Assembly (NCBI RefSeq): GCF_030384885.1
Contig: NZ_CP128613.1
Reading direction: 5' to 3' (one strand)
Length of the DNA stretch: 64,000 nucleotides
Source of the DNA: Escherichia coli
GTDB lineage: Bacteria; Pseudomonadota; Gammaproteobacteria; Enterobacterales; Enterobacteriaceae
Shown: in pieces, positions 2,936 to 60,618 of the stretch
Numbering within the stretch: the stretch's first letter is position 1
Layout of the letters: each line of letters opens with the position of its first letter
Made by a program: the position numbers and the translations under genes
The notes under the pieces: model-generated
The model's input: only the letters and a program-made list of their open reading frames with translations
What the model was told of the DNA's origin: nothing
Database searches by the model: none

Positions 2936-4351
2936 TTATTTCAGCCCCAGGGCGGCTTTCATGGTGTAGAAGAGATCGGTCTGGTCGGTCAGTCCAACGA
3001 CATTGGCGGCATGTGGGCCATACGCCGCAATACGCAGCTGACTACCGGTATGTTCTTGTGAATCCTCTTCGGAGTTCCCGTAACTCATCACCATCACTGC
3101 GCCATCTTTGGTATTTAGCGCCTGGGTGAGGCCCGGCGCTTTGGTGTCCGGCGCGACAATCTGGCTGGCGTGGGCGTGATCAGCGGTGACTATGACCAGC
3201 GTGTTGCCATCCTTTTTAGCGAATTCCAGCGCCCGTTGTACGGCTTCGTCGAGATCGACCGTCTCGCCAATTTGCCCACAAGGATTCGCCGCGTGATCCT
3301 GTTTATCGATTGATGCACCTTCAACTTGCAGGAAAAAGCCTTTCTCATTTTTACTCAACAATTCAATGGCTTTATCAGTCATCTGCGCCAGGGTCGGTAC
3401 GCTGTCATTACGTTGCGGATTAGGCGTACAGGTAACTGCGGGCTTGTCGATATTGCCGTGGTACGTTGCTTTCGGTCCTTGCCAGCGCACTGGCATATTG
3501 CCGTCAGCAAACAGTCCTAGCAGGGGTTTTTGCTGGTTCGCTTCCGTCACCGCATTCAGTGAGGCAGCATCGCTCACCAACTGATAACCACGCGCCTGCG
3601 CCTGTTCACGCAGCGTTTTTCCCTGCCATTCACCGGCGGTTGCCGTTTCCGCAAAGGTTTTTGCGCCGCCGCCAAGCGTAACATCGGCACGGGCGTTAAG
3701 CAGCTGTTCGGTAATCGATCCTTTTCCGCCTTTTTCCAGCGCGTTACCCGGACATTTTTCACTGGTCGCGCTCGGACCGTAGCATTTGCGCGAAGTCACA
3801 TGCGCCACCAACGCGGCGGGAGTGGCATCCTGCAACTCTGCGGTAGAAACGTTACCGGTCGCCAGCCCTGCGGCTTTTGCCATTTCCAGAATCGTTGGGT
3901 GATCTTTTTCATGAATATCGACACCCAATGCGCCGTTATAGGTTTTGACACCGGTTGACCAGGCAGTTGCTGATGCAGCCGAGTCGGTAACGTAGTCCGG
4001 TTTGCCGGTTTTTTTATTCAGCGCATAGTGAGTGTATTGCCCGGTAAGCGGTAAGGCATCAATACCTTTAAAAAAGCCGCCCGCACCTTCGGCATAATTA
4101 CGTGCGGCAGTAATTTCCGAATCCCCCATCCCATCGCCAATCAGCAAAATAATATTTTTTGCAGGCTTATCGCTAAGAGAATCACGCAGAGCGGCGCTCT
4201 GATCACCCGTTAAGCGGCGAGCACCGCCGGGTGCAGTAATATCGCCCTGAGCAGCCCGGTTTTCCAGAATAGGCATTTCTGGTGTCCGGGCTTTTGTCAC
4301 AGGGGTAAACAGTAACGGTAAGAGTGCCAGTGCAATAGTGCTTTGTTTCAC
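2936..4351 (-). CDS. phoA: Alkaline phosphatase
   Basis: ORF 2936-4393; GTG start giving [21 protein letters not shown] signal peptide at 4351; 471 aa; matches PhoA from memory. Confidence 0.95.
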
Positions 4352-4410
4352 TTTATTTTCTCCATGTACAAATACATTAAAAAATAAAAACAAAGCGACT
4401 ATAAGTCTCA

Positions 4411-4430
4411 GCCGTGACAGCTTTATGACA
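4411..4430 (-). promoter_or_regulatory. Pho box (PhoB binding site) of the phoA promoter
   Basis: Minus strand reads CTGTCATAAAGCTGTCACGG, two direct CTGTCA repeats, about 60 bp upstream of the phoA start. Confidence 0.7.
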
Positions 4431-4451
4431 GCTGTTGAAAAGATTACCTTT

Positions 4452-4712
4452 TTACTGACGAGGATGCTTCAATAACTTCTTTACATAATCGCGCAGCAGC
4501 TCCGTATCGTCGTCAGGAATGCTGGCATCGGGCTTTACCTCGTAAAGTGCCCCCTCAACCTGATCAATCAACCGCTGTTGGTCATTTTGCGCCATATTAC
4601 GAAGCATTGCAGTGACGATAATCTCCAGTGCTTCTACCTGCGCGCACAGTTCTTTCGACTCTTCTTCTTTTTGGGCAAGCTTAAATAACAACTCAGCAAT
4701 GAGATTTTTCAT
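4452..4712 (-). CDS. iraP: Anti-adaptor protein IraP (RpoS stabiliser)
   Basis: 86 aa [33 protein letters not shown]...; matches IraP/YaiB from memory. Confidence 0.9.
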
Positions 4713-5174
4713 GTCTGTATTTCCTTATCCAAAGTATGGAGAAGTTAACATTATGCTTCACAACTTCATAGTGTCTGGAGGTAGTATTTTTATGACGAAT
4801 GAAATACTTTGCGCAAATATTTTTTCCATATTTATCAGCGAAACGTTTCTCTTATTTAAATAAGTAACCATACAAAGTATAGGTTTTTAATTATCAACCT
4901 TTATTATAAGTAAAAGTTATGAAATATATTCTCTTTGCTAACTTATAATTAAGAGAAAAAAACTCACTGCATGGCCATTTAAACCAGGAATAAATTAGCT
5001 TCCCGTTCATCATTTTTGTGATCTTGCGCACATCTTTGAGATAACGCACTTTCTTCACCAGTACGTTGCACACTTTGTCAGTAGAAGATTGCAACATTCT
5101 GTCAGAAGGCCGCGAATCCCCCGTTTTGTCGTGGTAATGTATGCACTTTGTGTTAGACGGGATAGGTTTTCAAG

Positions 5175-6269
5175 ATGGAAAAACTGCGGGTAGGAATCGT
5201 TTTTGGTGGTAAATCAGCGGAACATGAAGTGTCTTTGCAATCGGCAAAAAACATTGTCGATGCCATTGATAAAAGTCGCTTCGACGTTGTGCTGCTGGGC
5301 ATTGATAAACAAGGGCAATGGCACGTCAGCGATGCCAACAATTATCTGCTAAATGCAGACGATCCTGCCCATATTGCGTTGCGCCCTTCGGCGACCAGTC
5401 TTGCGCAGGTGCCTGGTAAACATGAGCATCAGCTTATCGACGCACAAAACGGTCAGCCATTGCCGACGGTGGATGTCATTTTCCCGATTGTTCACGGTAC
5501 GCTAGGCGAAGATGGTTCCTTGCAGGGAATGCTGCGGGTCGCCAATTTACCGTTTGTGGGTTCTGATGTTTTGGCGTCAGCGGCCTGTATGGATAAAGAT
5601 GTCACCAAACGTCTGCTACGCGATGCCGGGCTGAACATTGCGCCATTTATTACCCTGACACGCACCAATCGTCAAAACATCAGTTTTGCCGAAGTGAAGT
5701 CAAAACTGGGGTTACCGCTGTTTGTAAAACCCGCTAACCAAGGCTCTTCTGTTGGTGTCAGCAAAGTAACCAGTGAAGAAGAGTACGCAATTGCCGTCGA
5801 TCTGGCGTTCGAGTTCGATCATAAAGTGATCGTTGAGCAAGGGATCAAAGGTCGTGAGATCGAATGCGCGGTTCTGGGCAACGACAATCCGCAAGCCAGT
5901 ACCTGTGGCGAGATCGTACTAACCAGCGATTTCTATGCCTACGACACCAAGTACATTGACGAAGATGGCGCGAAAGTGGTGGTTCCGGCAGCCATTACGC
6001 CTGAAATTAACGATAAGATCCGGGCAATTGCCGTTCAGGCTTATCAAACGTTGGGTTGCGCAGGCATGGCGCGTGTAGACGTGTTTTTAACCCCAGAGAA
6101 CGAAGTGGTAATCAACGAGATCAACACACTGCCAGGCTTCACCAACATCAGTATGTATCCGAAGCTGTGGCAAGCCAGCGGTTTGGGTTACACCGACCTG
6201 ATCACACGTCTGATCGAGTTGGCGCTGGAGCGTCACGCTGCGGATAACGCATTGAAAACCACAATGTAA
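5175..6269 (+). CDS. ddlA: D-alanine--D-alanine ligase A
   Basis: 364 aa [29 protein letters not shown]...; ATP-grasp ligase. Confidence 0.95.
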
Positions 6270-30184: not shown

Positions 30185-30392
30185 CGCACGCCAGCCGGAT
30201 GCGGCGTGAACGCCTTATCCGCCTACATTTCGCCCATAAACCGTAGGCATGATAAGACGCGCATAGCGTCGCATCAGGCATCTGCGCACAACTGCCGGAT
30301 GCGGCGTGAACGCCTTATCCGGCCTACATTTCGCCCATGAGCCGTAGGCATGATAAGACGCGCAAAGCATCGCATCAGGCATCTGTGCACGG
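30185..30392. repeat. REP/BIME cluster, two tandem units
   Basis: Duplicated about 100-bp unit with GCCGGATGCGGCGTGAACGCCTTATCCGGCCTAC-type palindromes between frmB and yaiL. Confidence 0.8.
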
Positions 30393-32334: not shown

Positions 32335-32535
32335 GCCTACGGACGAAAGTAGGCCGGATAAGGCGTTTATGCCGCATCCGGCAGTCGTGCACAGATGCCT
32401 GATGCGACGCTGACGCGTCTTATCATGCCTACAAATTCCCGCGCCATCCGTAGGCCGGATAAGGCGTTTATGCCGCATCCGGCAGTCGTGCGCCATTGCC
32501 TGATGCGACGCTGACGCGTCTTATCAGGCCTGGGA
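32335..32535. repeat. REP/BIME cluster, two tandem units
   Basis: Repeated GGCCGGATAAGGCGTTTATGCCGCATCCGGCAGTCGTGC ... GCCTGATGCGACGCTGACGCGTCTTATCA units between mhpT and mhpE. Confidence 0.8.
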
Positions 32536-39031: not shown

Positions 39032-39865
39032 ATGCAGAAAGATGTGCAGACGGAATACAAAACCGTGCGCGGCTTAACCCGCGGTCTAATGTTATTAAAT
39101 ATGTTAAATAAACTCGATGGCGGTGCCAGCGTCGGGCTGCTGGCGGAGCTCAGCGGCCTGCATCGCACCACTGTGCGGCGACTGCTGGAAACGCTGCAGG
39201 AAGAGGGATATGTCCGGCGCAGTACCTCCGATGACAGTTTTCGTCTGACCATCAAAGTGCGGCAATTAAGCGAAGGATTTCGTGACGAACAATGGATTTC
39301 TGCACTGGCAGCCCCGCTACTGGGCGATCTGTTGCGCGAAGTGGTATGGCCGACAGATGTGTCCACGCTGGATGTTGATGCAATGGTGGTACGCGAAACC
39401 ACCCACCGTTTCAGCCGTTTATCTTTTCACCGGGCAATGGTCGGACGGCGTTTACCGCTCCTGAAAACCGCCTCGGGACTGACCTGGCTGGCCTTTTGCC
39501 CGGAACAAGAACGCAAGGAGTTAATCGAAATGTTAGCCGCCCGCCCCGGTGATGACTATCAACTGGCACGGGAACCGTTAAAGCTGGAAGCCATTCTGGC
39601 GCGCGCACGCAAAGAGGGTTACGGACAGAACTACCGTGGCTGGGATCAGGAAGAGAAGATCGCCTCCATTGCCGTGCCCCTACGCAGTGAACAACGGGTG
39701 ATTGGCTGTCTGAATCTGGTGTATATGGCAAGCGCAATGACCATCGAACAGGCAGCGGAAAAGCATCTTCCGGCGCTACAACGGGTAGCAAAACAGATCG
39801 AAGAAGGGGTTGAATCGCAGGCTATTCTGGTGGCCGGACGGCGAAGCGGCGTGCATTTACGCTAG
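39032..39865 (+). CDS. mhpR: IclR-family activator of the mhp operon
   Basis: ORF 38918-39865; start MQKDVQTEYKTVRGLTRGLMLLNML at 39032; 277 aa. Confidence 0.9.
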   Translation: MQKDVQTEYKTVRGLTRGLMLLNMLNKLDGGASVGLLAELSGLHRTTVRRLLETLQEEGYVRRSTSDDSFRLTIKVRQLSEGFRDEQWISALAAPLLGDLLREVVWPTDVSTLDVDAMVVRETTHRFSRLSFHRAMVGRRLPLLKTASGLTWLAFCPEQERKELIEMLAARPGDDYQLAREPLKLEAILARARKEGYGQNYRGWDQEEKIASIAVPLRSEQRVIGCLNLVYMASAMTIEQAAEKHLPALQRVAKQIEEGVESQAILVAGRRSGVHLR

Positions 39866-39967
39866 TTGCGCCAATGTGTAATTTGGCCCATTTTCATCGT
39901 TATTCGCCCATTTGCCCACATGCACAGTACGGGCTGCACGCTACGCTAATGCCATCAATACTGTGAT

Positions 39968-40756
39968 GTGGAGCAAATCATGAAAATTACTCAAATTCGT
40001 AATGCCACCCAAATTATCCAATACGCTGGCAAAACATTTCTTATTGACCCGTTACTCGCGCCTAAAGGAAGTTATCCGGGTTTTGCCGGAACGGCACGCG
40101 CAGAAATCCGCAATCCAACGGTAGAATTACCGTGTGATTTAACAACGTTACTCAACGTTGACGCCCTAATAGTGACCCATTTGCATGAAGATCACTGGGA
40201 CGAAACAGCCTCCCGCGTCGTCCCCAAAGATAAACAGATTTATGTGCAAAATGAGCAAGATGCTGAATCACTGCATAAACAAGGATTTACGCATCTTACC
40301 GTACTTGCCGACGAGACTAAATTTGGCGATATTACTCTGCATAAAACGACAGGGCAGCACGGCTCCGATCGCACCTATGCAGACCCGGCTATGGCGAAGC
40401 GTTTAGGCGCAGCCTGCGGCGTTGTTTTCCAGCACCCGACAGAGAAAACGCTCTATCTGGCTGGCGATACCCTCTGGCGTGATGACGTCGAGGCTACAAT
40501 GCTAACTTTCCAACCAGAAGTGGTGGTGTTGAATGCCGGATTTGCGCATGTTCTGGGGCATGGCGCGATAATTATGGGAGCTGAAGATATTCTCAAAACA
40601 CATTTTACCCTGCCAGAAGCGCAAATTGTCGCGACACATATGGAGGCCGTAAACCACTGTTTGCTGACGCGTGATGCGCTCAAGGAATACGCCAGAGATA
40701 ATCAAATTATCGAATTTGTGAACGTACCAGAAGATGGTGAAACGTTGACATTCTAA
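39968..40756 (+). CDS. Metallo-beta-lactamase-fold hydrolase, function unknown
   Basis: 262 aa; THLHEDHWDE metal-binding motif (HxHxDH-like); SD GGAG 8 nt upstream; not present in K-12 as I recall it. Confidence 0.75.
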   Translation: MEQIMKITQIRNATQIIQYAGKTFLIDPLLAPKGSYPGFAGTARAEIRNPTVELPCDLTTLLNVDALIVTHLHEDHWDETASRVVPKDKQIYVQNEQDAESLHKQGFTHLTVLADETKFGDITLHKTTGQHGSDRTYADPAMAKRLGAACGVVFQHPTEKTLYLAGDTLWRDDVEATMLTFQPEVVVLNAGFAHVLGHGAIIMGAEDILKTHFTLPEAQIVATHMEAVNHCLLTRDALKEYARDNQIIEFVNVPEDGETLTF

Positions 40757-40775
40757 TTCGGAGATAAAGAGTGTT

Positions 40776-41729
40776 ATGCGCCCGCTAACTGTTGCCATTA
40801 TCGCCGTTGCCGGTTTTAGTCCTTTTCACCTTTCCGTACCGTTTATCGTGTTTAGCGAAAAAATGGCGGAGAAAAAACGCTTTCATGTAATTATCTGCGC
40901 TGAAAAGCCGGGAAATGTGGACTCTGCCGATGGGTTTTCCGTAACCGCCACCCATGACTATACGGCAGTCATCCAGGCGGATATTGTGATAATTCCTTAC
41001 TGGGGAACAATTACACAAAAACCGCCACAAAAACTGCTGGAAGCCTTAACGACCGCACGAGATAACGGGGCACAGATTGTCGGGCTTTGCCTGGGCACGT
41101 TTGTGCTCGGCTATGCAGGTTTACTGAACAATAAGCGTGCTGCCACGCACTGGGAGTTCGAGCGTGAATTTCAGGCACGTTTTCCACAAACACATCTGGA
41201 TATTAACGCGTTGTATGTAGACGATGATGGCATTATTACCTCTGCCGGTACTGCCGCGGCGCTGGATTGCTGTTTGTATATTGTTCGGCAACATTTTGGC
41301 AGCGACTATGCTAACCATATTGCCCGACGGATGGTCGTACCGCCATATCGCACCGGCGGTCAGGCGCAGTTTATAGAGCAACCGGTGCCGAAAAATACCC
41401 ATGATGAACGCATTAACCTCCTGCTGGATTACCTGCGGCAAAACATTGCGCAACAGCATGATCTCGACTCGCTGGCTCAGCGAGTAATGATGAGTCGCCG
41501 CACACTAACCCGTCATTTTATGAAAGCGACCGGTTCGAGTATCGCCGAATGGCTCATCACTGAACGCTTACGCCGTAGCCAGGAACTGTTGGGATCCAGT
41601 CAGTTGCCCGTTGAGCGGATAGCGGCTGAGGTGGGTTTTCTCTCACCTGTGACCTGGCGTCAGCATTTTAAATCTCACTTCGGCGTCAGCCCCGCAGAAT
41701 GGCGCAAAACCTTTCGTGGTATGGCATGA
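40776..41729 (+). CDS. GlxA-type transcriptional regulator (DJ-1/PfpI-like domain plus AraC HTH)
   Basis: 317 aa; N-terminal class I amidotransferase-like fold, C-terminal AraC HTH; the 3' end contains the lacI promoter. Confidence 0.8.
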   Translation: MRPLTVAIIAVAGFSPFHLSVPFIVFSEKMAEKKRFHVIICAEKPGNVDSADGFSVTATHDYTAVIQADIVIIPYWGTITQKPPQKLLEALTTARDNGAQIVGLCLGTFVLGYAGLLNNKRAATHWEFEREFQARFPQTHLDINALYVDDDGIITSAGTAAALDCCLYIVRQHFGSDYANHIARRMVVPPYRTGGQAQFIEQPVPKNTHDERINLLLDYLRQNIAQQHDLDSLAQRVMMSRRTLTRHFMKATGSSIAEWLITERLRRSQELLGSSQLPVERIAAEVGFLSPVTWRQHFKSHFGVSPAEWRKTFRGMA

Positions 41730-41730
41730 T
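41702..41730 (+). promoter_or_regulatory. lacI promoter (-35 GCGCAA, -10 CATGAT)
   Basis: Near-identical to the classical K-12 PlacI sequence; here it lies inside the last codons of the upstream regulator gene. Confidence 0.7.
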
Positions 41731-41765
41731 AGCGCCCGGAAGAAAGTCAATTCAGGGTGGTGAAT

Positions 41766-42848
41766 GTGAAACCAGTAACGCTATACGATGTCGCGGAGTA
41801 TGCCGGTGTCTCTTATCAGACCGTTTCGCGCGTGGTGAATCAGGCTAGCCACGTTTCAGCGAAAACGCGGGAAAAAGTGGAAGCGGCGATGGCGGAGCTA
41901 AATTACATTCCCAACCGCGTAGCACAACAGTTAGCGGGCAAACAGTCGTTGCTGATTGGCGTTGCCACCTCCAGTCTGGCCCTGCACGCACCGTCGCAAA
42001 TTGTCGCGGCGATTAAATCTCGCGCCGATCAACTGGGTGCCAGCGTGGTGGTGTCGATGGTAGAAAGAAGTGGTGTCGAAGCCTGTAAAGCGGCAGTACA
42101 CAATCTTCTCGCGCAACGCGTAAGTGGTCTGATCATCAACTATCCGCTGGATGACCAGGATGCCATTGCTGTGGAGGCAGCCTGCGCTAATGTTCCGGCG
42201 CTATTTCTTGATGTCTCTGACCAGACTCCCATCAACAGTATTATTTTTTCCCATGAAGACGGTACGCGGCTGGGCGTAGAGCATTTGGTCGCATTGGGTC
42301 ACCAGCAAATCGCGCTGTTAGCGGGCCCATTAAGTTCTGTCTCGGCGCGTCTGCGTCTGGCGGGCTGGCATAAATATCTTAAACACAATCAAATTCAACC
42401 GATAGCGGAACGGGAAGGCGACTGGAGCGCCATGTCCGGTTTTCATCAAACCATGCAGATGCTGAATGAGGGCATCATTCCTACCGCGATGCTGGTTGCC
42501 AACGACCAGATGGCGCTGGGTGCAATGCGCGCCATTACCGAGTTCGGGCTGCGCGTCGGCGCGGATATCTCGGTAGTGGGATACGACGATACCGAAGACA
42601 GCTCGTGTTATATCCCGCCATTAACGACCATCAAACAGGATTTTCGCCTGCTTGGGCAAACCAGCGTGGACCGCTTGCTGCAACTCTCTCAGGGCCAGGC
42701 GGTGAAGGGCAATCAGCTGTTGCCCGTCTCACTGGTGAAACGAAAAACCACCCTGCCACCCAATACGCAAACCGCTTCTCCCCAGGCGTTGGCTGATTCC
42801 TTAATGCAACTGGCGCGACAAATTTCCCGACTGGAAAGCGAGCAGTGA
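41766..42848 (+). CDS. lacI: Lactose operon repressor
   Basis: GTG start (VKPVTLYDVAEYAGVSYQTVSRV...); 360 aa; near-identical to K-12 LacI from memory. Confidence 0.97.
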   Translation: MKPVTLYDVAEYAGVSYQTVSRVVNQASHVSAKTREKVEAAMAELNYIPNRVAQQLAGKQSLLIGVATSSLALHAPSQIVAAIKSRADQLGASVVVSMVERSGVEACKAAVHNLLAQRVSGLIINYPLDDQDAIAVEAACANVPALFLDVSDQTPINSIIFSHEDGTRLGVEHLVALGHQQIALLAGPLSSVSARLRLAGWHKYLKHNQIQPIAEREGDWSAMSGFHQTMQMLNEGIIPTAMLVANDQMALGAMRAITEFGLRVGADISVVGYDDTEDSSCYIPPLTTIKQDFRLLGQTSVDRLLQLSQGQAVKGNQLLPVSLVKRKTTLPPNTQTASPQALADSLMQLARQISRLESEQ

Positions 42849-51606: not shown

Positions 51607-52890
51607 TTACCGTTTGTAATCGATGGCTTCCGGCTGCTCCAGATACACGGTGGTTTGTGCCGGTTGCGTGGTGGCAATCACCTTACCACCACGTACCGAA
51701 TAGCGTACCGGAACCTGACGGCGCAGCGCATCAAACCCATTTTCAGCCGGCAGGATAATCAGGTTAGCGCTGTTTCCGGCGACTATGCCGTAATCCTGCA
51801 AATTCAACGTCCTGGCGCTATGGTGGGTGATTAAATTTAGGCCGTCGTTAATCTGCCCGTAGCCCATCAACTGACAAACATGCAGCCCCATATGCAGCAC
51901 TTGCAGCATATTCGCCGTTCCCAGTGGATACCACGGATCGAAGACATCATCGTGACCAAAGCAGACGTTAATGCCGGACTCCAGCATCTCTTTAACGCGC
52001 GTAATACCGCGACGTTTTGGATACGTATCGAAACGCCCTTGTAGATGAATATTGACCAGCGGGTTGGCGACAAAGTTAATACCGGACATTTTCAGCAAAC
52101 GGAACAGCCGCGAGGTATACGCCCCGTTATAGGAGTGCATTGCCGTGGTGTGGCTGGCGGTGACTCGCGCGCCCATGCCTTCACGGTGAGCCAGGGCGGC
52201 AACGGTTTCGACAAAGCGCGACTGTTCGTCATCGATCTCATCACAGTGAACATCGATGAGACGGTCGTATTTTTGCGCCAGGGCGAAGGTTTTATGCAGC
52301 GACTCCACGCCATATTCACGGGTAAATTCAAAATGCGGAATCGCCCCCACTACGTCAGCCCCTAAGCGTAACGCCTCTTCCAGTAACGCTTCACCGTTGG
52401 GATACGACAAAATCCCTTCCTGCGGGAAGGCGACGATTTGCAGATCAATCCACGGCGCGACTTCCTGCTTCACTTCCAGCATCGCTTTTAGCGCAGTCAG
52501 GGTTGCATCCGAAACATCGACATGGGTACGCACATGCTGAATACCGTTGGCAATCTGCCATTTCAGCGTTTGCCAGGCGCGTTGTTTCACATCGCCATGG
52601 GTTAATAATGCTTTGCGCTCGGCCCAGCGTTCAATGCCTTCAAACAGCGTGCCGGACTGATTCCAGTTCGGTTGCCCGGCGGTTTGCGTGGTATCCAGGT
52701 GAATATGCGGCTCCACAAACGGCGGTAAAACTAAACCTTGCTCGGCATCCAGGCTGTTTTCTGTTACGGGCATCACGCCGGATTGCGCATCAATGGCGCT
52801 GATTTTTCCGTCCTGCAGATGAATCTGCCATAGCCCCTCTTTGCCGGGTAACCGGGCGTTAATAATTGTCTGTAAAGCGTTATTCGACAC
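51607..52890 (-). CDS. codA: Cytosine deaminase
   Basis: ORF 51607-52905; GTG start giving [16 protein letters not shown] at 52890; 427 aa; overlaps the codB stop. Confidence 0.9.
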
Positions 52891-54139
52891 TGTTAGCCTC
52901 CACATGCGTCATTGCAGCTGTCGTTTTGCGATTCAAAATCGGGTTAAGGATCAGATAGCTCAGCGCACCACCTAATACCGCGTTGACCGGAACAATGCCC
53001 GGTAACCAGTGGCCTGCGGCAATCCCCAGCGCGACCGCCAGAATCGCCACCCAATTGACACTCATCATACGCGTGGTCGCAAAGTGCTCATAGCGGCGAC
53101 GGTTCATCAGATAGTCGGCGATGATCACGCCACCCACCGGAGGAATAGCAGCCGAAAGGAAGGTTAGCCAGCCGACAAAATTGTTATACAGCCATAGTGC
53201 GCAGACCGTGCCGATAATACCGTTGATTACTGAAAGAGTTTTGCTCGACATACCGGTAATATTGGCGAAACCTAAACCCGACGCATAGAGCGCGTTATCG
53301 TTGGTGGTCCAGATATTCAACCCCAGCACCACAATCGCGGGCAGCAGCAAGCCCTGAGCAATCATCACATCAGAGATATCCGCCATCCCCAGTGCCGCAG
53401 CGCCTGCCGCACCGAAAATAAACATCAACGAGTTGCCGAGGAAAAAGGCCACCATCGCCACCAGCACCGCCAGTTTGGCATTGCGACCAAAGCGGACAAA
53501 GTCAGCGGTGAGCGTACCCGCACTGATAAATGACCCCACAACCAGCGCCAGCGCGACATTGAAATCTAGCGGTTGTGCGGGAACGACCGCTTTTAAGGCG
53601 TCCAAACCGCCCATGCCGTTAACGGCCAGCCATACGGAATAACCGCCAAGGCAGGCAATCGCCGGAACCGCAATCACCGAAAGTACCGTCAGCGCCGAAA
53701 TGCCAAAGAAGACGGTGACGGTCATCAGTAAACCGGAAACGGCAATCAGCAAATTAATATCCAGCCCGGTTGCCTTGCCCACCGGAATAGCAAACATCGC
53801 CACGCCAACACCAAACCAGCCGACCTGAGTGCCGCCCAGCAGCAGTGAAGGCAGCCATGAGCCTTTAACACCAAACGAGAAGCGAGCAAGAAGATGGGTG
53901 GTCAGGCCGGTTTTTGCGCCAATGTAACCAAGAAATGAAGTGTAAATACCGAGGAGAAGATTACCGATGAGGACTGCGAGGAAGAAATCATGATAGCTAA
54001 GACCGGTTCCGAGAGTGCCGCCGGTCCACATACTGGCGGAAAAGAAGGTTAATCCCAGCATGACGAACGTCAATGCCAATACCCCTTTCCGCGCCGACTG
54101 CGGGACTGGCCCCTGGCTAAAGTTGTTATCTTGCGACAC
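52880..54139 (-). CDS. codB: Cytosine permease
   Basis: 419 aa polytopic membrane protein. Confidence 0.95.
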
Positions 54140-54297
54140 GAAATTCCCCCTTTTTGCTGTTTGAAACCCAAAAAATCCGCCGCATTCTATTCATCTGAAG
54201 ATAAAAAGCAATCGTTTTCGTGGAGGGGGTATATTTTTTATATGGATGAATGCGGAAAAGTGGATAAAAACTTATTTGAGAAAAAATGGGTACACAT

Positions 54298-54645
54298 GAT
54301 AAGACACGCCTGCGTCGCATCAGGCATCTGCGCACGGTGTCGGATGCGGCGCGTGCGCCTTATCCGACCTGCGGTTCAGGCCTGTAGGCATGATAAGACG
54401 CGTCAGCGTCACATCAGGCATCTGCGCACGGTGTCGGATGCGCCGCGTGCGCCTTATCCGACCTACGGTTCAGGCCTGTAGGCATGATAAGACGCGCCTG
54501 CGTTGCATCAGGCATCTACGCATAGCTGTCGGATGCGCCGCGTGCGCCTTATCCGACCTGCGGTTCAGGCCTGTAGGGATGATAAGACGCGTCAGCGTCG
54601 CATCAGGCATCTGCGCACGGTGTCGGACGCGCCACACGACACATC
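54298..54645. repeat. BIME/REP tandem array, about 3.6 units with 94-95 bp period
   Basis: Unit CGCATCAGGCATCTGCGCACGGTGTCGGATGCG.CGCGTGCGCCTTATCCGACCTGCGGTTCAGGCCTGTAGGCATGATAAGACGCG repeats from about 54316, 54410, 54505 and 54599. Confidence 0.85.
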
Positions 54646-54655
54646 CGACAATACC

Positions 54656-56542
54656 TTACTCTTCCATCGCCTGGCGGATCTGATCCAACGACGCAGGATC
54701 ATCAATGGTCGTCAGATCTCCCGGATCGCGTCCTTCACAAATCGCCTGGATCGTGCGGCGCAGCATTTTTCCGGATCGCGTTTTTGGCAATTGCGAGACA
54801 AACCAGACGTGCGCCGGGCGGCCAAAGTTGCCAATCTGGCTGTCCACCAGCGCCATAATCGCCTTCTCTTGCGAGTGCGCCACCTCGCGATCTTCCAGAC
54901 TGTCGCTCTCTTTCGGAATGACAAACGCCACCGCCACCTGCCCTTTCAGCGCATCTTTCACCCCAACCACCGCCACTTCAGCAACGCCCGGATGACTGGA
55001 GATACTCTCTTCAATCTCGCGTGTGCCAAGCCGATGCCCGGCAACATTAATCACATCGTCAGTGCGCCCGAGAATAAAGTGATAACCGTCAGCGTCACGG
55101 ATGCCCCAGTCAAAAGTGGCATACACCGGACGGGAAAACAGCGACCAGTACGTCTTCACAAAGCGGTCGTCGTCGCCCCAGATGGTCTGAATACAGCCCG
55201 GCGGCAACGGCCCTTCCACCACCAGCATCCCTTTCTCATTGACGCCGCACGGTTCGCCGGTGACTTCATTGAGCAACTGCACGTTATAGCCATACATCGG
55301 CACGCCGGGGCTTCCCAGACGCGTCGGCCTGTCGTCCAGACCGCGAGCAATTGCCATAATCGGCCAGCCGGATTCGGTCTGCCAGTAGTTGTCGATGACC
55401 GGCACATCCAGCGTATTGCTCACCCAACTGGCGGTCGGCTCGTCCAGCGGTTCTCCCGCCAGATAGAGCACTTCCAGCGACGAGAGATCGTGTTTGCGAA
55501 TTTCAGCGGTAGGGAATTTTTTCAGCACGCGAATGGCGGTCGGCGCTGAGAACATCCGGCTAACCTGATATTTCTCGACGATTTTCCACCACACACCGCA
55601 GTCAGGATAAGTCGGCAATCCTTCGTAAACGATAGTCGCCATCCCCGCCAGCAGCGGCGCGTAGACGATATACGAATGCCCCACTACCCAGCCGATATCC
55701 GACGCACAGAAGAACACACCGCCCGCTTTGCCGCCAAAAATGGTGTCCATTGAGGTCGCCAGCGCCACCGCATAACCGCCGACGTCACGCTGTACGCCTT
55801 TTGGTTTGCCGGTCGTGCCGGAGGTGTAGAGAATGCAGGAGGTTTCGTTGGATTCCAGCCACGCCACCGGCACCCGCGCGCCGATGTGTTGATGGCGCAA
55901 CGACGCGAAATCGACATCCCGCCCGCTGACGCGCGCCATTTTCGCCAGCCCGCGATCCACCAGCAAAACGTGGCGCGGCTGATGCTGCGCCTGACTTATC
56001 GCATCGTCGAGCAATTTTTTATAAGGAATGATTTTGCCACCGCGCGCTCCGGCATCTGCCGAGACAATCAGCACCGGTTTAGCGTCATCAATCCGCGCAG
56101 CCACGCTGTGCGAGGCAAATCCACCAAACACTACCGAGTGAATAGCGCCAATGCGCGCGCAGGCCAGCAGGGTAATATGCGCTTCGGCAATCATCGGCAT
56201 ATACACCAGCACCCGATCGCCACGCCGTACGCCCAGTGAGCGCAGCATTGACGCCACCGCGTTCACTTCGTCATGCAACTGGCGAAAGGTAAAGGTGCGC
56301 TCTTCTTCTGTTTCCGAAGAGACGGCAATTAATGCCAGCGCCTCTGGCTGTTTCTCCAGCCAGCGGTCGATGGCGTTATGACACAAATTGGTTCGGCCTT
56401 CACAAAACCAACGGGCAAACGGCGGATTGCTGTGATCGAGCGTTTGCGTAAAGGGCGTCTGCCAGTCAATACGCCGGGCCTGCTCGGCCCAGAATTGCTC
56501 CGGTTCGTTAATCGAACGCTGATAAAATTCGCTAAAAGACAT
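54656..56542 (-). CDS. prpE: Propionate--CoA ligase
   Basis: 628 aa acyl-CoA synthetase (TSGTTGKPKG AMP-binding motif). Confidence 0.95.
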   Translation of the reverse strand: MSFSEFYQRSINEPEQFWAEQARRIDWQTPFTQTLDHSNPPFARWFCEGRTNLCHNAIDRWLEKQPEALALIAVSSETEEERTFTFRQLHDEVNAVASMLRSLGVRRGDRVLVYMPMIAEAHITLLACARIGAIHSVVFGGFASHSVAARIDDAKPVLIVSADAGARGGKIIPYKKLLDDAISQAQHQPRHVLLVDRGLAKMARVSGRDVDFASLRHQHIGARVPVAWLESNETSCILYTSGTTGKPKGVQRDVGGYAVALATSMDTIFGGKAGGVFFCASDIGWVVGHSYIVYAPLLAGMATIVYEGLPTYPDCGVWWKIVEKYQVSRMFSAPTAIRVLKKFPTAEIRKHDLSSLEVLYLAGEPLDEPTASWVSNTLDVPVIDNYWQTESGWPIMAIARGLDDRPTRLGSPGVPMYGYNVQLLNEVTGEPCGVNEKGMLVVEGPLPPGCIQTIWGDDDRFVKTYWSLFSRPVYATFDWGIRDADGYHFILGRTDDVINVAGHRLGTREIEESISSHPGVAEVAVVGVKDALKGQVAVAFVIPKESDSLEDREVAHSQEKAIMALVDSQIGNFGRPAHVWFVSQLPKTRSGKMLRRTIQAICEGRDPGDLTTIDDPASLDQIRQAMEE

Positions 56543-58066: not shown

Positions 58067-59236
58067 TTACTGGCGCTTATCCAGCGCGACAAACTGGCGG
58101 TCTTCCGGTCCAACGTAATTGGCGGAAGGACGGATAATTTTGTTGTCCTGACGTTGTTCGATAATGTGCGCTGCCCAGCCGGTGACGCGGGCGATAACAA
58201 ACAGTGGCGTGAACATCTCGGTGGGAACGCCCATCATGTTGTAGGAAACAGCGGAGAACCAGTCGAGATTGGGGAACATCTTTTTGCTCTCCCACATCAC
58301 CGCTTCCAGACGATCGGCGATGTTGTACATCTTCAGCGAGCCGCCTTCCTGCGAGAGCTGCTTCGCCACGCGTTTGATCACCTGATGACGCGGGTCAGCG
58401 ATGGTATAAACCGGATGTCCAAAACCAATCACCACTTCTTTGTTTTCCACGCGCTTGCGGATATCGGCTTCGGCTTCGTCCGGCGTTTCGTAGCGTTGCT
58501 GGATCTCCAGCGACACTTCATTCGCCCCGCCGTGTTTCGGCCCGCGCAGTGCGCCAATCGCGCCGATAATCGCTGAATACATGTCAGAGCCGGTGCCCGC
58601 AATCACCCGGCTGGTAAAGGTGGAGGCGTTAAACTCGTGTTCGGCGTACAGCACCAGCGAAATATGCATCGCCTTTTCCCAGCTTTGCGACGGCTTTTCG
58701 CCATGCAGCAGATGCAGGAAGTGACCGCCGATGGAGTCGTCATCGGTTTCCGGCTGAATGCGTTCGCCGTTGTGGCTGTAGTGATACCAGTAGAGAAGAA
58801 TCGAGCTAAGTGATGCCAGCAGTTTGTCGGCAATATCACGCGCGCCGGAGACGGTATGCCCCTCTTTTTCTGGCAGCGTGCAGCCGAGCGCGGAAACGCC
58901 GGTGCGCATGACATCCATCGGATGCGACGCCGCTGGTAAGGCTTCCAGCACGGTACGCACGTTAGCCGGTAAACCGCGCAGGGCTTTCAGTTTCGTTTTG
59001 TAGGCGGCGAGTTCGTCACGGGTCGGCAGTTTGCCGTGGATCAGCAGATGCGCCACTTCTTCAAATTCGCAATGTTCCGCCAGATCAAGAATGTCGTAGC
59101 CGCGGTAATGCAAATCATTGCCACTTTTACCCACGGTGCAGAGCGCCGTATTGCCCGCCGGAACGCCAGAAAGTGCCACAGATTTTTTTGGTTTAATGAC
59201 ATGGGTACTGTTTTGCAGGATCGTTGTGTCGCTCAT
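58067..59236 (-). CDS. prpC: 2-methylcitrate synthase
   Basis: 389 aa citrate-synthase-family protein. Confidence 0.95.
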
Positions 59237-59275
59237 GTTGTCCTCGTCATTGTTATCATTTGTAGGGTCGAGATT

Positions 59276-59465
59276 GTTGTCGGATGCGACGCTATGCGTC
59301 TTATCCGACCTACAGTTCAGTTCATCCCGTAGGCCTGATAAGCCGCGTCAGCGACGCATCAGGCATCGGTTGTCGGATGCGACGTCATGCGTCTTATCCG
59401 ACCTACAGTTCAGTTCATCCCGTAGGCCTGATAAGCCGCGTCAGCGGCGCATCAGGCATCGGTTG
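59276..59465. repeat. BIME/REP tandem array, two units with 94 bp period
   Basis: TTGTCGGATGCGACG..ATGCGTCTTATCCGACCTACAGTTCAGTTCATCCCGTAGGCCTGATAAGCCGCGTCAGCG.CGCATCAGGCATCGG repeated from 59276 and 59370. Confidence 0.8.
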
Positions 59466-59489
59466 TCGAATACAACCAAAGGGCGTTTT

Positions 59490-60380
59490 TTATTTCGCCT
59501 GGTTACGGGCAAACAGGTCGTCGAGCTTTTCTTCGTACTGGTAGTAGTTAATGCTTTCATACAGCTCGTTGCGGGTCTGCATGGTGTCGATGACGCTTTT
59601 CTGCGTGCCTTCCTGGCGCAGGACGTTGTAGACATGTTCAGCGGCGCGGTTCATGGCGCGGAAAGCAGAAAGGGGATACAGCGCCATTGCGACATGGGCG
59701 CTGCGTAATTCGTCGGTGGTAAACAGCGGTGTTGCGCCAAACTCGGTAATGTTGGCAAGGATTGGCACCTGCACCGCATCGGCAAACTGGCGGTACATAG
59801 CGAGTTCGGTAATTGCTTCCGGGAACAACATTTCGGCACCCGCTTCAACATAGGCCTGCGCACGCTCGAGCGCCGCATCCAGCCCTTCAACCGCCAGCGC
59901 ATCGGTGCGCGCCATGATCACAAAATCAGGATCGGTTTTCGCATCCACCGCCGCGCGGATCCGATCCACCATCTCTTCTTTCGAGACGATCGCTTTGTTC
60001 GGGCGATGACCGCAGCGTTTTGCTCCAACCTGATCTTCAATATGTAAGCCCGCCGCACCGGCTTTAATCATCGATTTCACAGTGCGGGCAACGTTAAAAG
60101 CCGAAGAGCCAAAACCGATATCCGCATCCACCAGCAGCGGCAGCGAGCAGACGTCAGTGATACGACGAATATCAGTCAGCACATCATCAAGAGTAGAAAT
60201 ACCGAGATCCGGCAACCCCAGCGAACCTGCCGCCACACCACCGCCGGAGAGATAAATCGCCTGATATCCGGCACGCTGCGCCAACAGCGCATGATTAGCG
60301 TTGATGGTGCCGACAATCTGCAATGGATTTTCTTTAGACAGTGCAGCGCGAAACGCTTTACCCGGAGAGTGTAGAGACAT
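59490..60380 (-). CDS. prpB: 2-methylisocitrate lyase
   Basis: 296 aa isocitrate-lyase/PEP-mutase-family protein. Confidence 0.95.
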
Positions 60381-60426
60381 AGCCCATCCTTTGTTATCAA
60401 CTTGTTATTTACGTTGATAAACTCAA

Positions 60427-60442
60427 AGCAAGGGGTGTGCCA
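60427..60442 (-). promoter_or_regulatory. Sigma-54 promoter (-24/-12) of prpBCDE
   Basis: Minus strand reads TGGCACACCCCTTGCT (TGGCAC-N5-TTGC), about 45 bp upstream of the prpB start. Confidence 0.6.
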
Positions 60443-60618
60443 CAATTACATGGATGAAATTAAATGTTTTATTTCAATTTGTTAGAGAAAAAGTCATGAA
60501 GTAATCTGCAAATATGCGTTTCAGTTAACGTTTCAGGCAATGTTTCACTGCGTTTCATTGCAACAATTATGAAACAAGACTAAACCCAATATTCGGTTTC
60601 TTAACTTTGCGGTGCGCT

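Follow-up and report, generated by a model that had tools for sequence, protein, structure and literature searches.

The REPs of E. coli are imperfect palindromes of about 30-40 nt that fit a Y, Z1 or Z2 consensus. BIMEs are alternating, inverted arrangements of REPs (PMC3333891). BIME-1 elements consist of a Z1 and a Y REP, occur as a single copy and have a long L linker, in which an IHF site is frequent (PMC3333891, summarising the Bachellier classes). BIME-2 elements combine Z2 with Y and occur as tandem copies with short linkers (PMC3333891). Atypical BIMEs are multi-copy chimeras in which components of these two classes are mixed (Ton-Hoang et al. 2012, PMC3333891). It is already documented that the number of BIMEs at a given locus varies between strains. 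Furthermore, cleavage and recombination of BIMEs by TnpA-REP (RayT) have been observed in vitro, and an amplification model has been proposed (PMC3333891).

For one such array, REP325, effects on the neighbouring genes have been described. According to a preprint (Harris et al. 2026, 10.64898/2026.03.23.713779), this 12-hairpin BIME, which separates the tandem genes yjdM and yjdN, makes the mRNA of the upstream gene more stable and lets less transcription pass into the downstream gene, partly via Rho. A ladder of hairpin-ended transcripts is produced and the nucleoid is not compacted. In the same preprint, REPs between tandem genes raise the ratio of upstream to downstream expression genome-wide; it also stresses a large context-dependence of REPs and finds no general half-life effect of terminal REPs. 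In addition, ribosome stalling and reduced translation have been reported for REPs that lie less than 16 nt from a stop codon (Liang et al. 2015, cited in PMC12306157).

Here we describe the array between prpE and codB in a stretch of 64,000 nucleotides of Escherichia coli DNA (the window). As judged from its palindromes, it is a non-coding BIME of the 'atypical' class, with a Z1 REP inverted against a Y REP in each unit. We consider it quite probable that this atypical array acts in a 3' untranslated region (UTR) as mRNA stabiliser and partial attenuator, and that its number of units changes by recombination or slippage.

Layout and class of the prpE-codB array

The features of the locus are listed in Table 1. 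Both prpE and codB, the latter followed by codA, are located in tandem on the minus strand and therefore only prp transcription reads into the array. With respect to prpBCDE the array is part of the 3' UTR, and with respect to codBA it lies upstream of the promoter region. It is wholly extragenic, bounded by the prpE stop at 54656 and the codB start at 54139, and occupies all but the codB-proximal 155 bp of the 516-bp spacer (54140-54655). Its end is 5 nt away from the prpE stop codon.

Table 1. Features of the prpE-codB region, with positions in the window.
Feature	Position	Strand	Basis and remarks
codB, cytosine permease	52880..54139	-	NCBIfam NF008241 equivalog, 695 bits; transcribed away from the array
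Non-repetitive codB upstream region	54140..54294	-	155 bp; side-by-side comparison with K-12
Whole BIME array	54291..54655		Four tandem units of 94, 94, 95 and ~85 nt, equal to eight REP palindromic units; TRF, repeat search, in-register layout, hairpin folds
Z1-type REP 1	54297..54325	-	Partial, 27/29 identity to Z1; hairpin -13.0 kcal/mol in prpE-sense RNA
Y-type REP 1	54338..54370	+	27/33 identity to Y; hairpin -18.8 kcal/mol (minus strand), -20.2 (plus strand)
Z1-type REP 2	54384..54419	-	33/36 identity to Z1 (Z2: 28/36 with gaps); hairpin -14.7 kcal/mol
Y-type REP 2	54432..54466	+	CCTAC intact; 30/37 identity to Y; hairpin -16.4 kcal/mol
Z1-type REP 3	54478..54513	-	33/36 identity to Z1; hairpin -10.9 kcal/mol
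Y-type REP 3	54527..54559	+	28/35 identity to Y; hairpin -17.6 kcal/mol
Z1-type REP 4	54573..54608	-	33/36 identity to Z1; hairpin -12.1 kcal/mol
Terminal degenerate Y-like palindrome (Y*)	54619..54655	+	Also detected as inverted repeat
prpE, propionate--CoA ligase	54656..56542	-	Last gene of prpBCDE; NCBIfam TIGR02316 equivalog, 1302 bits; RefSeq annotation of identical genome
Spurious ORF, 116 aa	54131..54481	+	TTG start; moves on to the next frame between unit 1 and unit 2
Spurious ORF, 97 aa	54390..54683	+	ATG start; repeat-derived reading of the 116-aa ORF shifted by one unit
Spurious ORF, 348 aa	54503..55549	+	TTG start; 148 nt in the array, 894 nt codon-aligned antisense to prpE

Tandem Repeats Finder (TRF) yields one array at 54295-54633 with a period of 94, 3.6 copies, 90% matches, 0% indels and a score of 571; the span in Table 1 also counts the degenerate last palindrome. 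A seed-and-extend repeat search, which is independent of TRF, finds four in-register copies at spacings of 94, 94 and 95 nt. An earlier sequence-only reading had placed about 3.6 copies of a 94-95-bp unit at 54298-54645 and proposed TRF as a check. Both searches agree with this placement, and the periodicity is detected by the program. That reading also had the unit built from REP palindromes and the array filling the space that separates the codB promoter region from the prpE stop. The former is confirmed by the typing described below (four Z1, three Y and one degenerate Y), the latter by the spacer layout and the gene calls. The array had furthermore been called long; it is a tandem array indeed, though not an especially long one, given that O157:H7 has twice as many units. 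Pairwise identities between units 1-3 are 91.5-93.6%. A higher-order repeat of two units (188 nt) was rejected, as these identities lack an alternating pattern and TRF gives the period of 94 only.

REPs were typed by local alignment to the consensus sequences that Durrant et al. 2024 (PMC11208160) give for Y, Z1 and Z2. The non-Y REPs align to Z1 with a score of 57 (33/36) against a score of 30 for Z2 (28/36 with gaps). The GTAG/CTAC foot tetranucleotide is present in Z1 REPs 2-4 (GTAGG on the plus strand) and in Y REP 2 (CCTAC). It is missing from Z1 REP 1 (GGGTACAC), from Y REPs 1 and 3, which end in CCTGC in place of CCTAC, and from the terminal Y*. In Z1 REP 1 this end is replaced on the codB side, at the boundary with a divergent stretch (54223-54294). 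Linkers measure 12 nt (54420-54431) and 11 nt (54467-54477).

With Z1 on one strand and Y on the other in alternation, the arrangement is that of a BIME. The array fits the atypical class because it combines Z1 and Y REPs with short linkers, four tandem copies and no IHF consensus (WATCAANNNNTTR has no match within 54140-54655). A BIME-1 with IHF site is ruled out by the copy number, the 11-12-nt linkers and this missing consensus; BIME-2 is ruled out by the non-Y REP, which is Z1 and not Z2.

All eight palindromic units fold as hairpins in the prpE sense (-10.9 to -21.6 kcal/mol). In the prpE mRNA, Y* forms a 13-bp stem that starts 5 nt past the UAA. Its fold is asymmetric (-21.6 kcal/mol for the minus strand against -9.9 for the plus strand): it is more stable in the mRNA sense because several of the pairs are G-U. 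The RNA fold of the whole array amounts to -178 kcal/mol, against -154 +/- 5.5 for shuffles (z = -4.4). In this minimum free energy fold neighbouring REPs pair with each other instead of forming eight local hairpins, which makes the structure in vivo uncertain.

Each unit also aligns full-length to the 77-nt naRNA4 model of Rfam on the prpE-sense (minus) strand; the units match it at E = 1e-9. This model was built from the REP325 BIME array. The four units score 59.0, 57.9, 53.8 and 40.0 bits, and membership of the family (RF02564) was rejected since even the best score is just below the gathering score of 59.5. Three other BIMEs in the window, at 30246-30324 (-), 32352-32530 (+) and 59332-59403 (-), do pass this threshold (65.8-84.1 bits), showing that the model works as a general BIME detector. 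One might take the E-value as a sign that the array acts at the level of DNA or nucleoid: as a site where DNA gyrase, HU or Pol I binds or cleaves and which relieves the supercoiling driven by transcription between prp and cod, or as a source of naRNA4-like RNAs that help HU to condense the chromosome. Binding of BIMEs by gyrase, Pol I and IHF has also been reported (PMC3333891, introduction; titles in the reference list of PMC12306157). We nevertheless regard such an action as highly improbable. The scores stay below the gathering threshold and the array has no IHF consensus. Moreover, the gyrase title listed in PMC12306157 concerns BIME-2 whereas this array has Z1, and for REP325/naRNA4 the 2026 preprint (10.64898/2026.03.23.713779) finds no measurable nucleoid compaction or mediation of REP-REP contacts.

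On the other side of the array, the 83 nt adjoining codB are identical to K-12, whereas the distal ~70 nt (54223-54294) diverge from K-12 and from the other alleles. The identical part contains AAGCAATCGTTTTCGT (54206-54221), which we take to be PurR-box-like on the basis of the PUR operator consensus. A simple sigma-70 scan found no promoter in the codB upstream region. For the minus strand, no terminator-like site was found within 53900-54900 and no REP is followed by a T-run in the prpE sense. An intrinsic terminator for prpE was consequently rejected, there being no hairpin-plus-U-tract downstream of the gene.

Plus-strand reading frames across the array

The sequence-only reading considered the three plus-strand ORFs that run through the repeats (Table 1) to be artefacts, and this is what we find. 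None of them matches a family in Pfam or NCBIfam, the spacer is free of PGAP-annotated CDSs in the RefSeq genome that is 100% identical, and the frame shifts with the repeat. As the period of 94 equals 1 mod 3, the frame moves on by one from each unit to the next. In the 116-aa and 97-aa ORFs we see one and the same reading, one unit apart (ATG 54296, inside the 116-aa ORF, against ATG 54390), and each crosses about two units before the third frame closes it.

The origin of the third ORF is only in part as had been supposed. It is an artefact as well, but mainly a shadow ORF of prpE: 85% of it is antisense to this gene and only the first 148 nt come from the array. Of the 629 codons of the antisense frame 5 are stops, whereas the other two frames have 21-23. 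Stops in this frame need the prpE codons TTA, CTA and TCA, which are used 1, 0 and 4 times, respectively. The open antisense frame extends 66-258 nt into the spacer depending on the allele, and as a consequence the "N-terminus" of the 348-aa ORF is not conserved.

It might be argued that open frames of 97-348 codons with start codons include at least one real gene. The probability of this is practically negligible. Apart from the missing family matches and the missing annotation in the identical RefSeq genome, two of the ORFs overlap and represent one repeat, read with an offset of one unit. The frame changes whenever a 94-nt unit is gained or lost, the reach of the antisense frame differs between alleles, and the longest ORF occupies the frame in which stops require rare prpE codons. 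The ORFs that cross the array are by-products of the repeat and of the prpE antisense frame. For annotation this means that REP/BIME arrays yield overlapping, Arg/Cys-rich ORFs of ~100 codons together with longer antisense shadow ORFs, which should be masked.

Unit number among E. coli genomes and its origin

A 601-bp query (54100-54700) was compared with 5,426 complete genomes. It is found at 100% in one of these, E. coli 2013C-4282 (NZ_CP027579.1), the source of the window; no other record reaches 99% or more. Spacer lengths were obtained with flank-only queries, in which the 5' end of codB is joined to the 3' end of prpE, from the span per record. We took two systematic spread samples of the ranked matches (~100 genomes) and laid out representatives in register (Table 2).

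Table 2. Spacer length and number of units in prpE-codB alleles.
Spacer	Units	Representative
236 bp	1	MEI005
324-338 bp	2	K-12 MG1655 (329)
423 bp	3	B27
516 bp	4	Window
611 bp	5	O169:H41 F6326-C1
799 bp	7	OkiPb01693
893-900 bp	8	O157:H7 F7349; EF5-18-41

Copy-number variation, for which the array had been named a candidate from its sequence, is evident from this comparison of spacers (1 to 8 units). The second sample comprises 59 non-self rows: 15 with one unit, 28 with two (including GZM7), 5 with three, 1 with five and 5 with eight. The other five are two rows with IS621 in the spacer (one complete, one truncated), two split rows and one row in which only prpE matches. Two units are thus commonest in the sampled genomes, and single-unit alleles make up about a quarter. 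The four-unit allele was not seen among the non-self genomes of either sample, and neither was an allele without any REP in the ~100 sampled genomes.

Some alleles deserve a separate remark. The 324-bp alleles (SSGw1, NU14) have no degenerate terminal palindrome: here a canonical Y REP abuts the prpE stop and the hairpin begins 0-1 nt past the UAA. In strain GZM7 prpE is annotated as a frameshifted pseudogene (1132-1881 in its extracted region). The eight units of O157:H7 F7349 and EF5-18-41 correspond to 16 palindromic units, which exceeds the maximum of 12 quoted for annotated K-12 REP elements. With its range of 236 to 900 bp between conserved genes, the spacer could serve as a simple length marker for lineages.

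The two eight-unit alleles (for O157:H7 F7349 at 4301-5193 in its extracted region) differ in unit composition. In O157:H7 units 4 and 7 are identical; in EF5-18-41 this holds for units 2 and 4 and for units 3 and 6. This suggests separate expansions by recent block duplications. The expansion in the window is not recent, since its units 1-3 are only 91.5-93.6% identical.

The region around the array shows an uneven relationship to other genomes. Between 38000 and 64000 the window shares only ~93-97% identity with K-12 over the whole length. At prpB-prpC (58500-60500) identity to the best non-self genome is 97.8%, with 4,870 records at 90-95%; on the lacI side (40000-42000) relatives are found at 99.8%. 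The prp-cod segment seems to stem from a lineage of which there are few complete genomes, and this may be why the allele of the array is unique. On the lacI side, 39862-41696 has no counterpart in the mhpR-lacI region of K-12. In the source genome, 40000-42000 is annotated with a GlxA-family regulator and an MBL-fold hydrolase adjoining lacI, and only 435 of the 5,426 genomes cover at least 80% of it.

In KW21, 20KM2228 and D1 the prpE-codB array is interrupted by IS621, an element of the IS110 family with a bridge-RNA recombinase (one of the copies is truncated). The insertions are in different units (spacer positions 251 and 157 for the two complete copies) and always at GTAG|GCCTGAT. The published natural target of IS621 is ATCAGGCCTAC in a REP (PMC11208160). 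This exact target is present in the first unit of K-12-like alleles and absent from both strands of the array in the window, because the Z1 copies there read GTAGGCATGAT or GTAGGGATGAT.

K-12 carries rayT at the yafL-fhiA/lfhA site, where the source strain 2013C-4282 has hicA/hicB between yafL and a flhA pseudogene (NZ_CP027579.1 2447215-2447842). Such a replacement of rayT by hicAB has been reported for 24 of 110 strains (Ton-Hoang et al., PMC3333891). At this canonical site, the single conserved one for rayT, the source strain appears to be without the enzyme thought to mobilise REPs. Units are most likely gained and lost when the 94-nt direct repeats recombine unequally or slip during replication, and RayT (TnpA-REP) may add to this in strains that keep rayT. 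For the window, hicAB at the rayT site together with the lack of identical units points to an old expansion followed by host recombination or slippage, and not to ongoing transposase activity.

These patterns raise the question whether the array has any regulatory effect. It could be neutral or selfish repeat DNA: REP doublets would multiply as non-autonomous elements (REPINs/BIMEs served by the RayT transposase), and the number of units would drift for want of any consequence. This would explain the wide range of unit numbers with one unit being common, the occurrence of the four-unit allele in only one of 5,426 genomes, and the two eight-unit alleles that arose separately according to their composition. 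It also accords with the in vitro activity of TnpA-REP and the amplification model (PMC3333891), and with functional effects that are inconsistent across the REP literature (10.64898/2026.03.23.713779). We consider this a serious rival to a role in the 3' UTR, yet an unlikely one in view of what the alleles have in common.

Proposed role in the prp 3' UTR and comparison with known systems

None of the alleles examined has fewer than one REP pair, and in each a hairpin is at most 5 nt away from the prpE stop (starting 0-5 nt past it in 13 of 13 alleles). Drift of a neutral repeat would not readily account for this, nor for the absence of REP-less alleles from the ~100 sampled genomes. The terminal hairpin is far more stable in the mRNA sense, which hints at a constraint at the RNA level. 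In addition, REP325 has measurable local effects (10.64898/2026.03.23.713779), and hicAB in place of rayT makes ongoing spread driven by a transposase unlikely in the source strain.

By analogy with REP325 and other REP arrays, the reading we prefer is that the array likely protects the prp mRNA and partly insulates codBA from prp read-through. The hairpins in the 3' UTR probably block 3'-to-5' exonucleases, by which the prpE mRNA would be stabilised. They probably also cause partial, partly Rho-dependent attenuation, leaving less prp read-through into codBA. The number of units would tune the strength of both effects. Units beyond the first are clearly dispensable, however, because alleles with a single unit are common. 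As to translation, the hairpin in the window and those in the 13 alleles are all closer to the prpE stop than the 16 nt below which ribosome stalling has been reported.

A more far-reaching version would regard the number of units as a heritable, strain-specific 'dial'. With more hairpins, prp mRNA would be better protected and codBA more tightly insulated from the read-through induced by propionate, the hairpin next to the stop would in addition throttle prpE translation, and the array would be a recurrent landing pad for IS621. We find this distinctly doubtful. If true, O157:H7 with eight units (16 hairpins) and one-unit alleles should differ measurably in the coupling of propionate and cytosine metabolism. 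The natural alleles, with 1-8 units at one site flanked by two well-studied operons, would be a convenient test bed for the recent proposal of REP arrays as tunable 3'-UTR regulators.

Compared to what has been described before, the array is an ordinary, already known kind of E. coli repeat, with nothing surprising to a specialist. It shares with atypical BIMEs the alternating, inverted Y and Z1 REPs, the short linkers, the tandem copies, the location outside genes where an operon has its 3' end, and a copy number per locus that differs between strains. Nothing essential is different; the first Z1 is without its CTAC end, two Y copies have CTGC for CTAC and the last Y is degenerate. With BIME-1 (the RIB/RIP element) it has the Z1 plus Y composition in common, whereas BIME-1 is single-copy with a long L linker and an IHF site, against four tandem copies with linkers of 11-12 nt here. 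The RefSeq record of K-12 returned no REP features for the prpE-codB locus. The BIME of K-12 MG1655 at this locus has the same unit type, register and terminal hairpin after the prpE stop. It differs in having two units in a 329-bp spacer (against four in 516 bp), and its unit sequences and codB-distal flank are unlike those of the window.

REP325/naRNA4 (yjdM-yjdN; Rfam RF02564; Qian et al. 2015, PMC4550694) is likewise a tandem BIME between genes on the same strand, with two-hairpin units of similar size. It consists of Z2 and Y REPs (BIME-2) with 12 hairpins, whereas the prpE-codB array consists of Z1 and Y REPs with eight. REP325 is the best experimental analogue for the proposed role as mRNA stabiliser and partial Rho-dependent attenuator.
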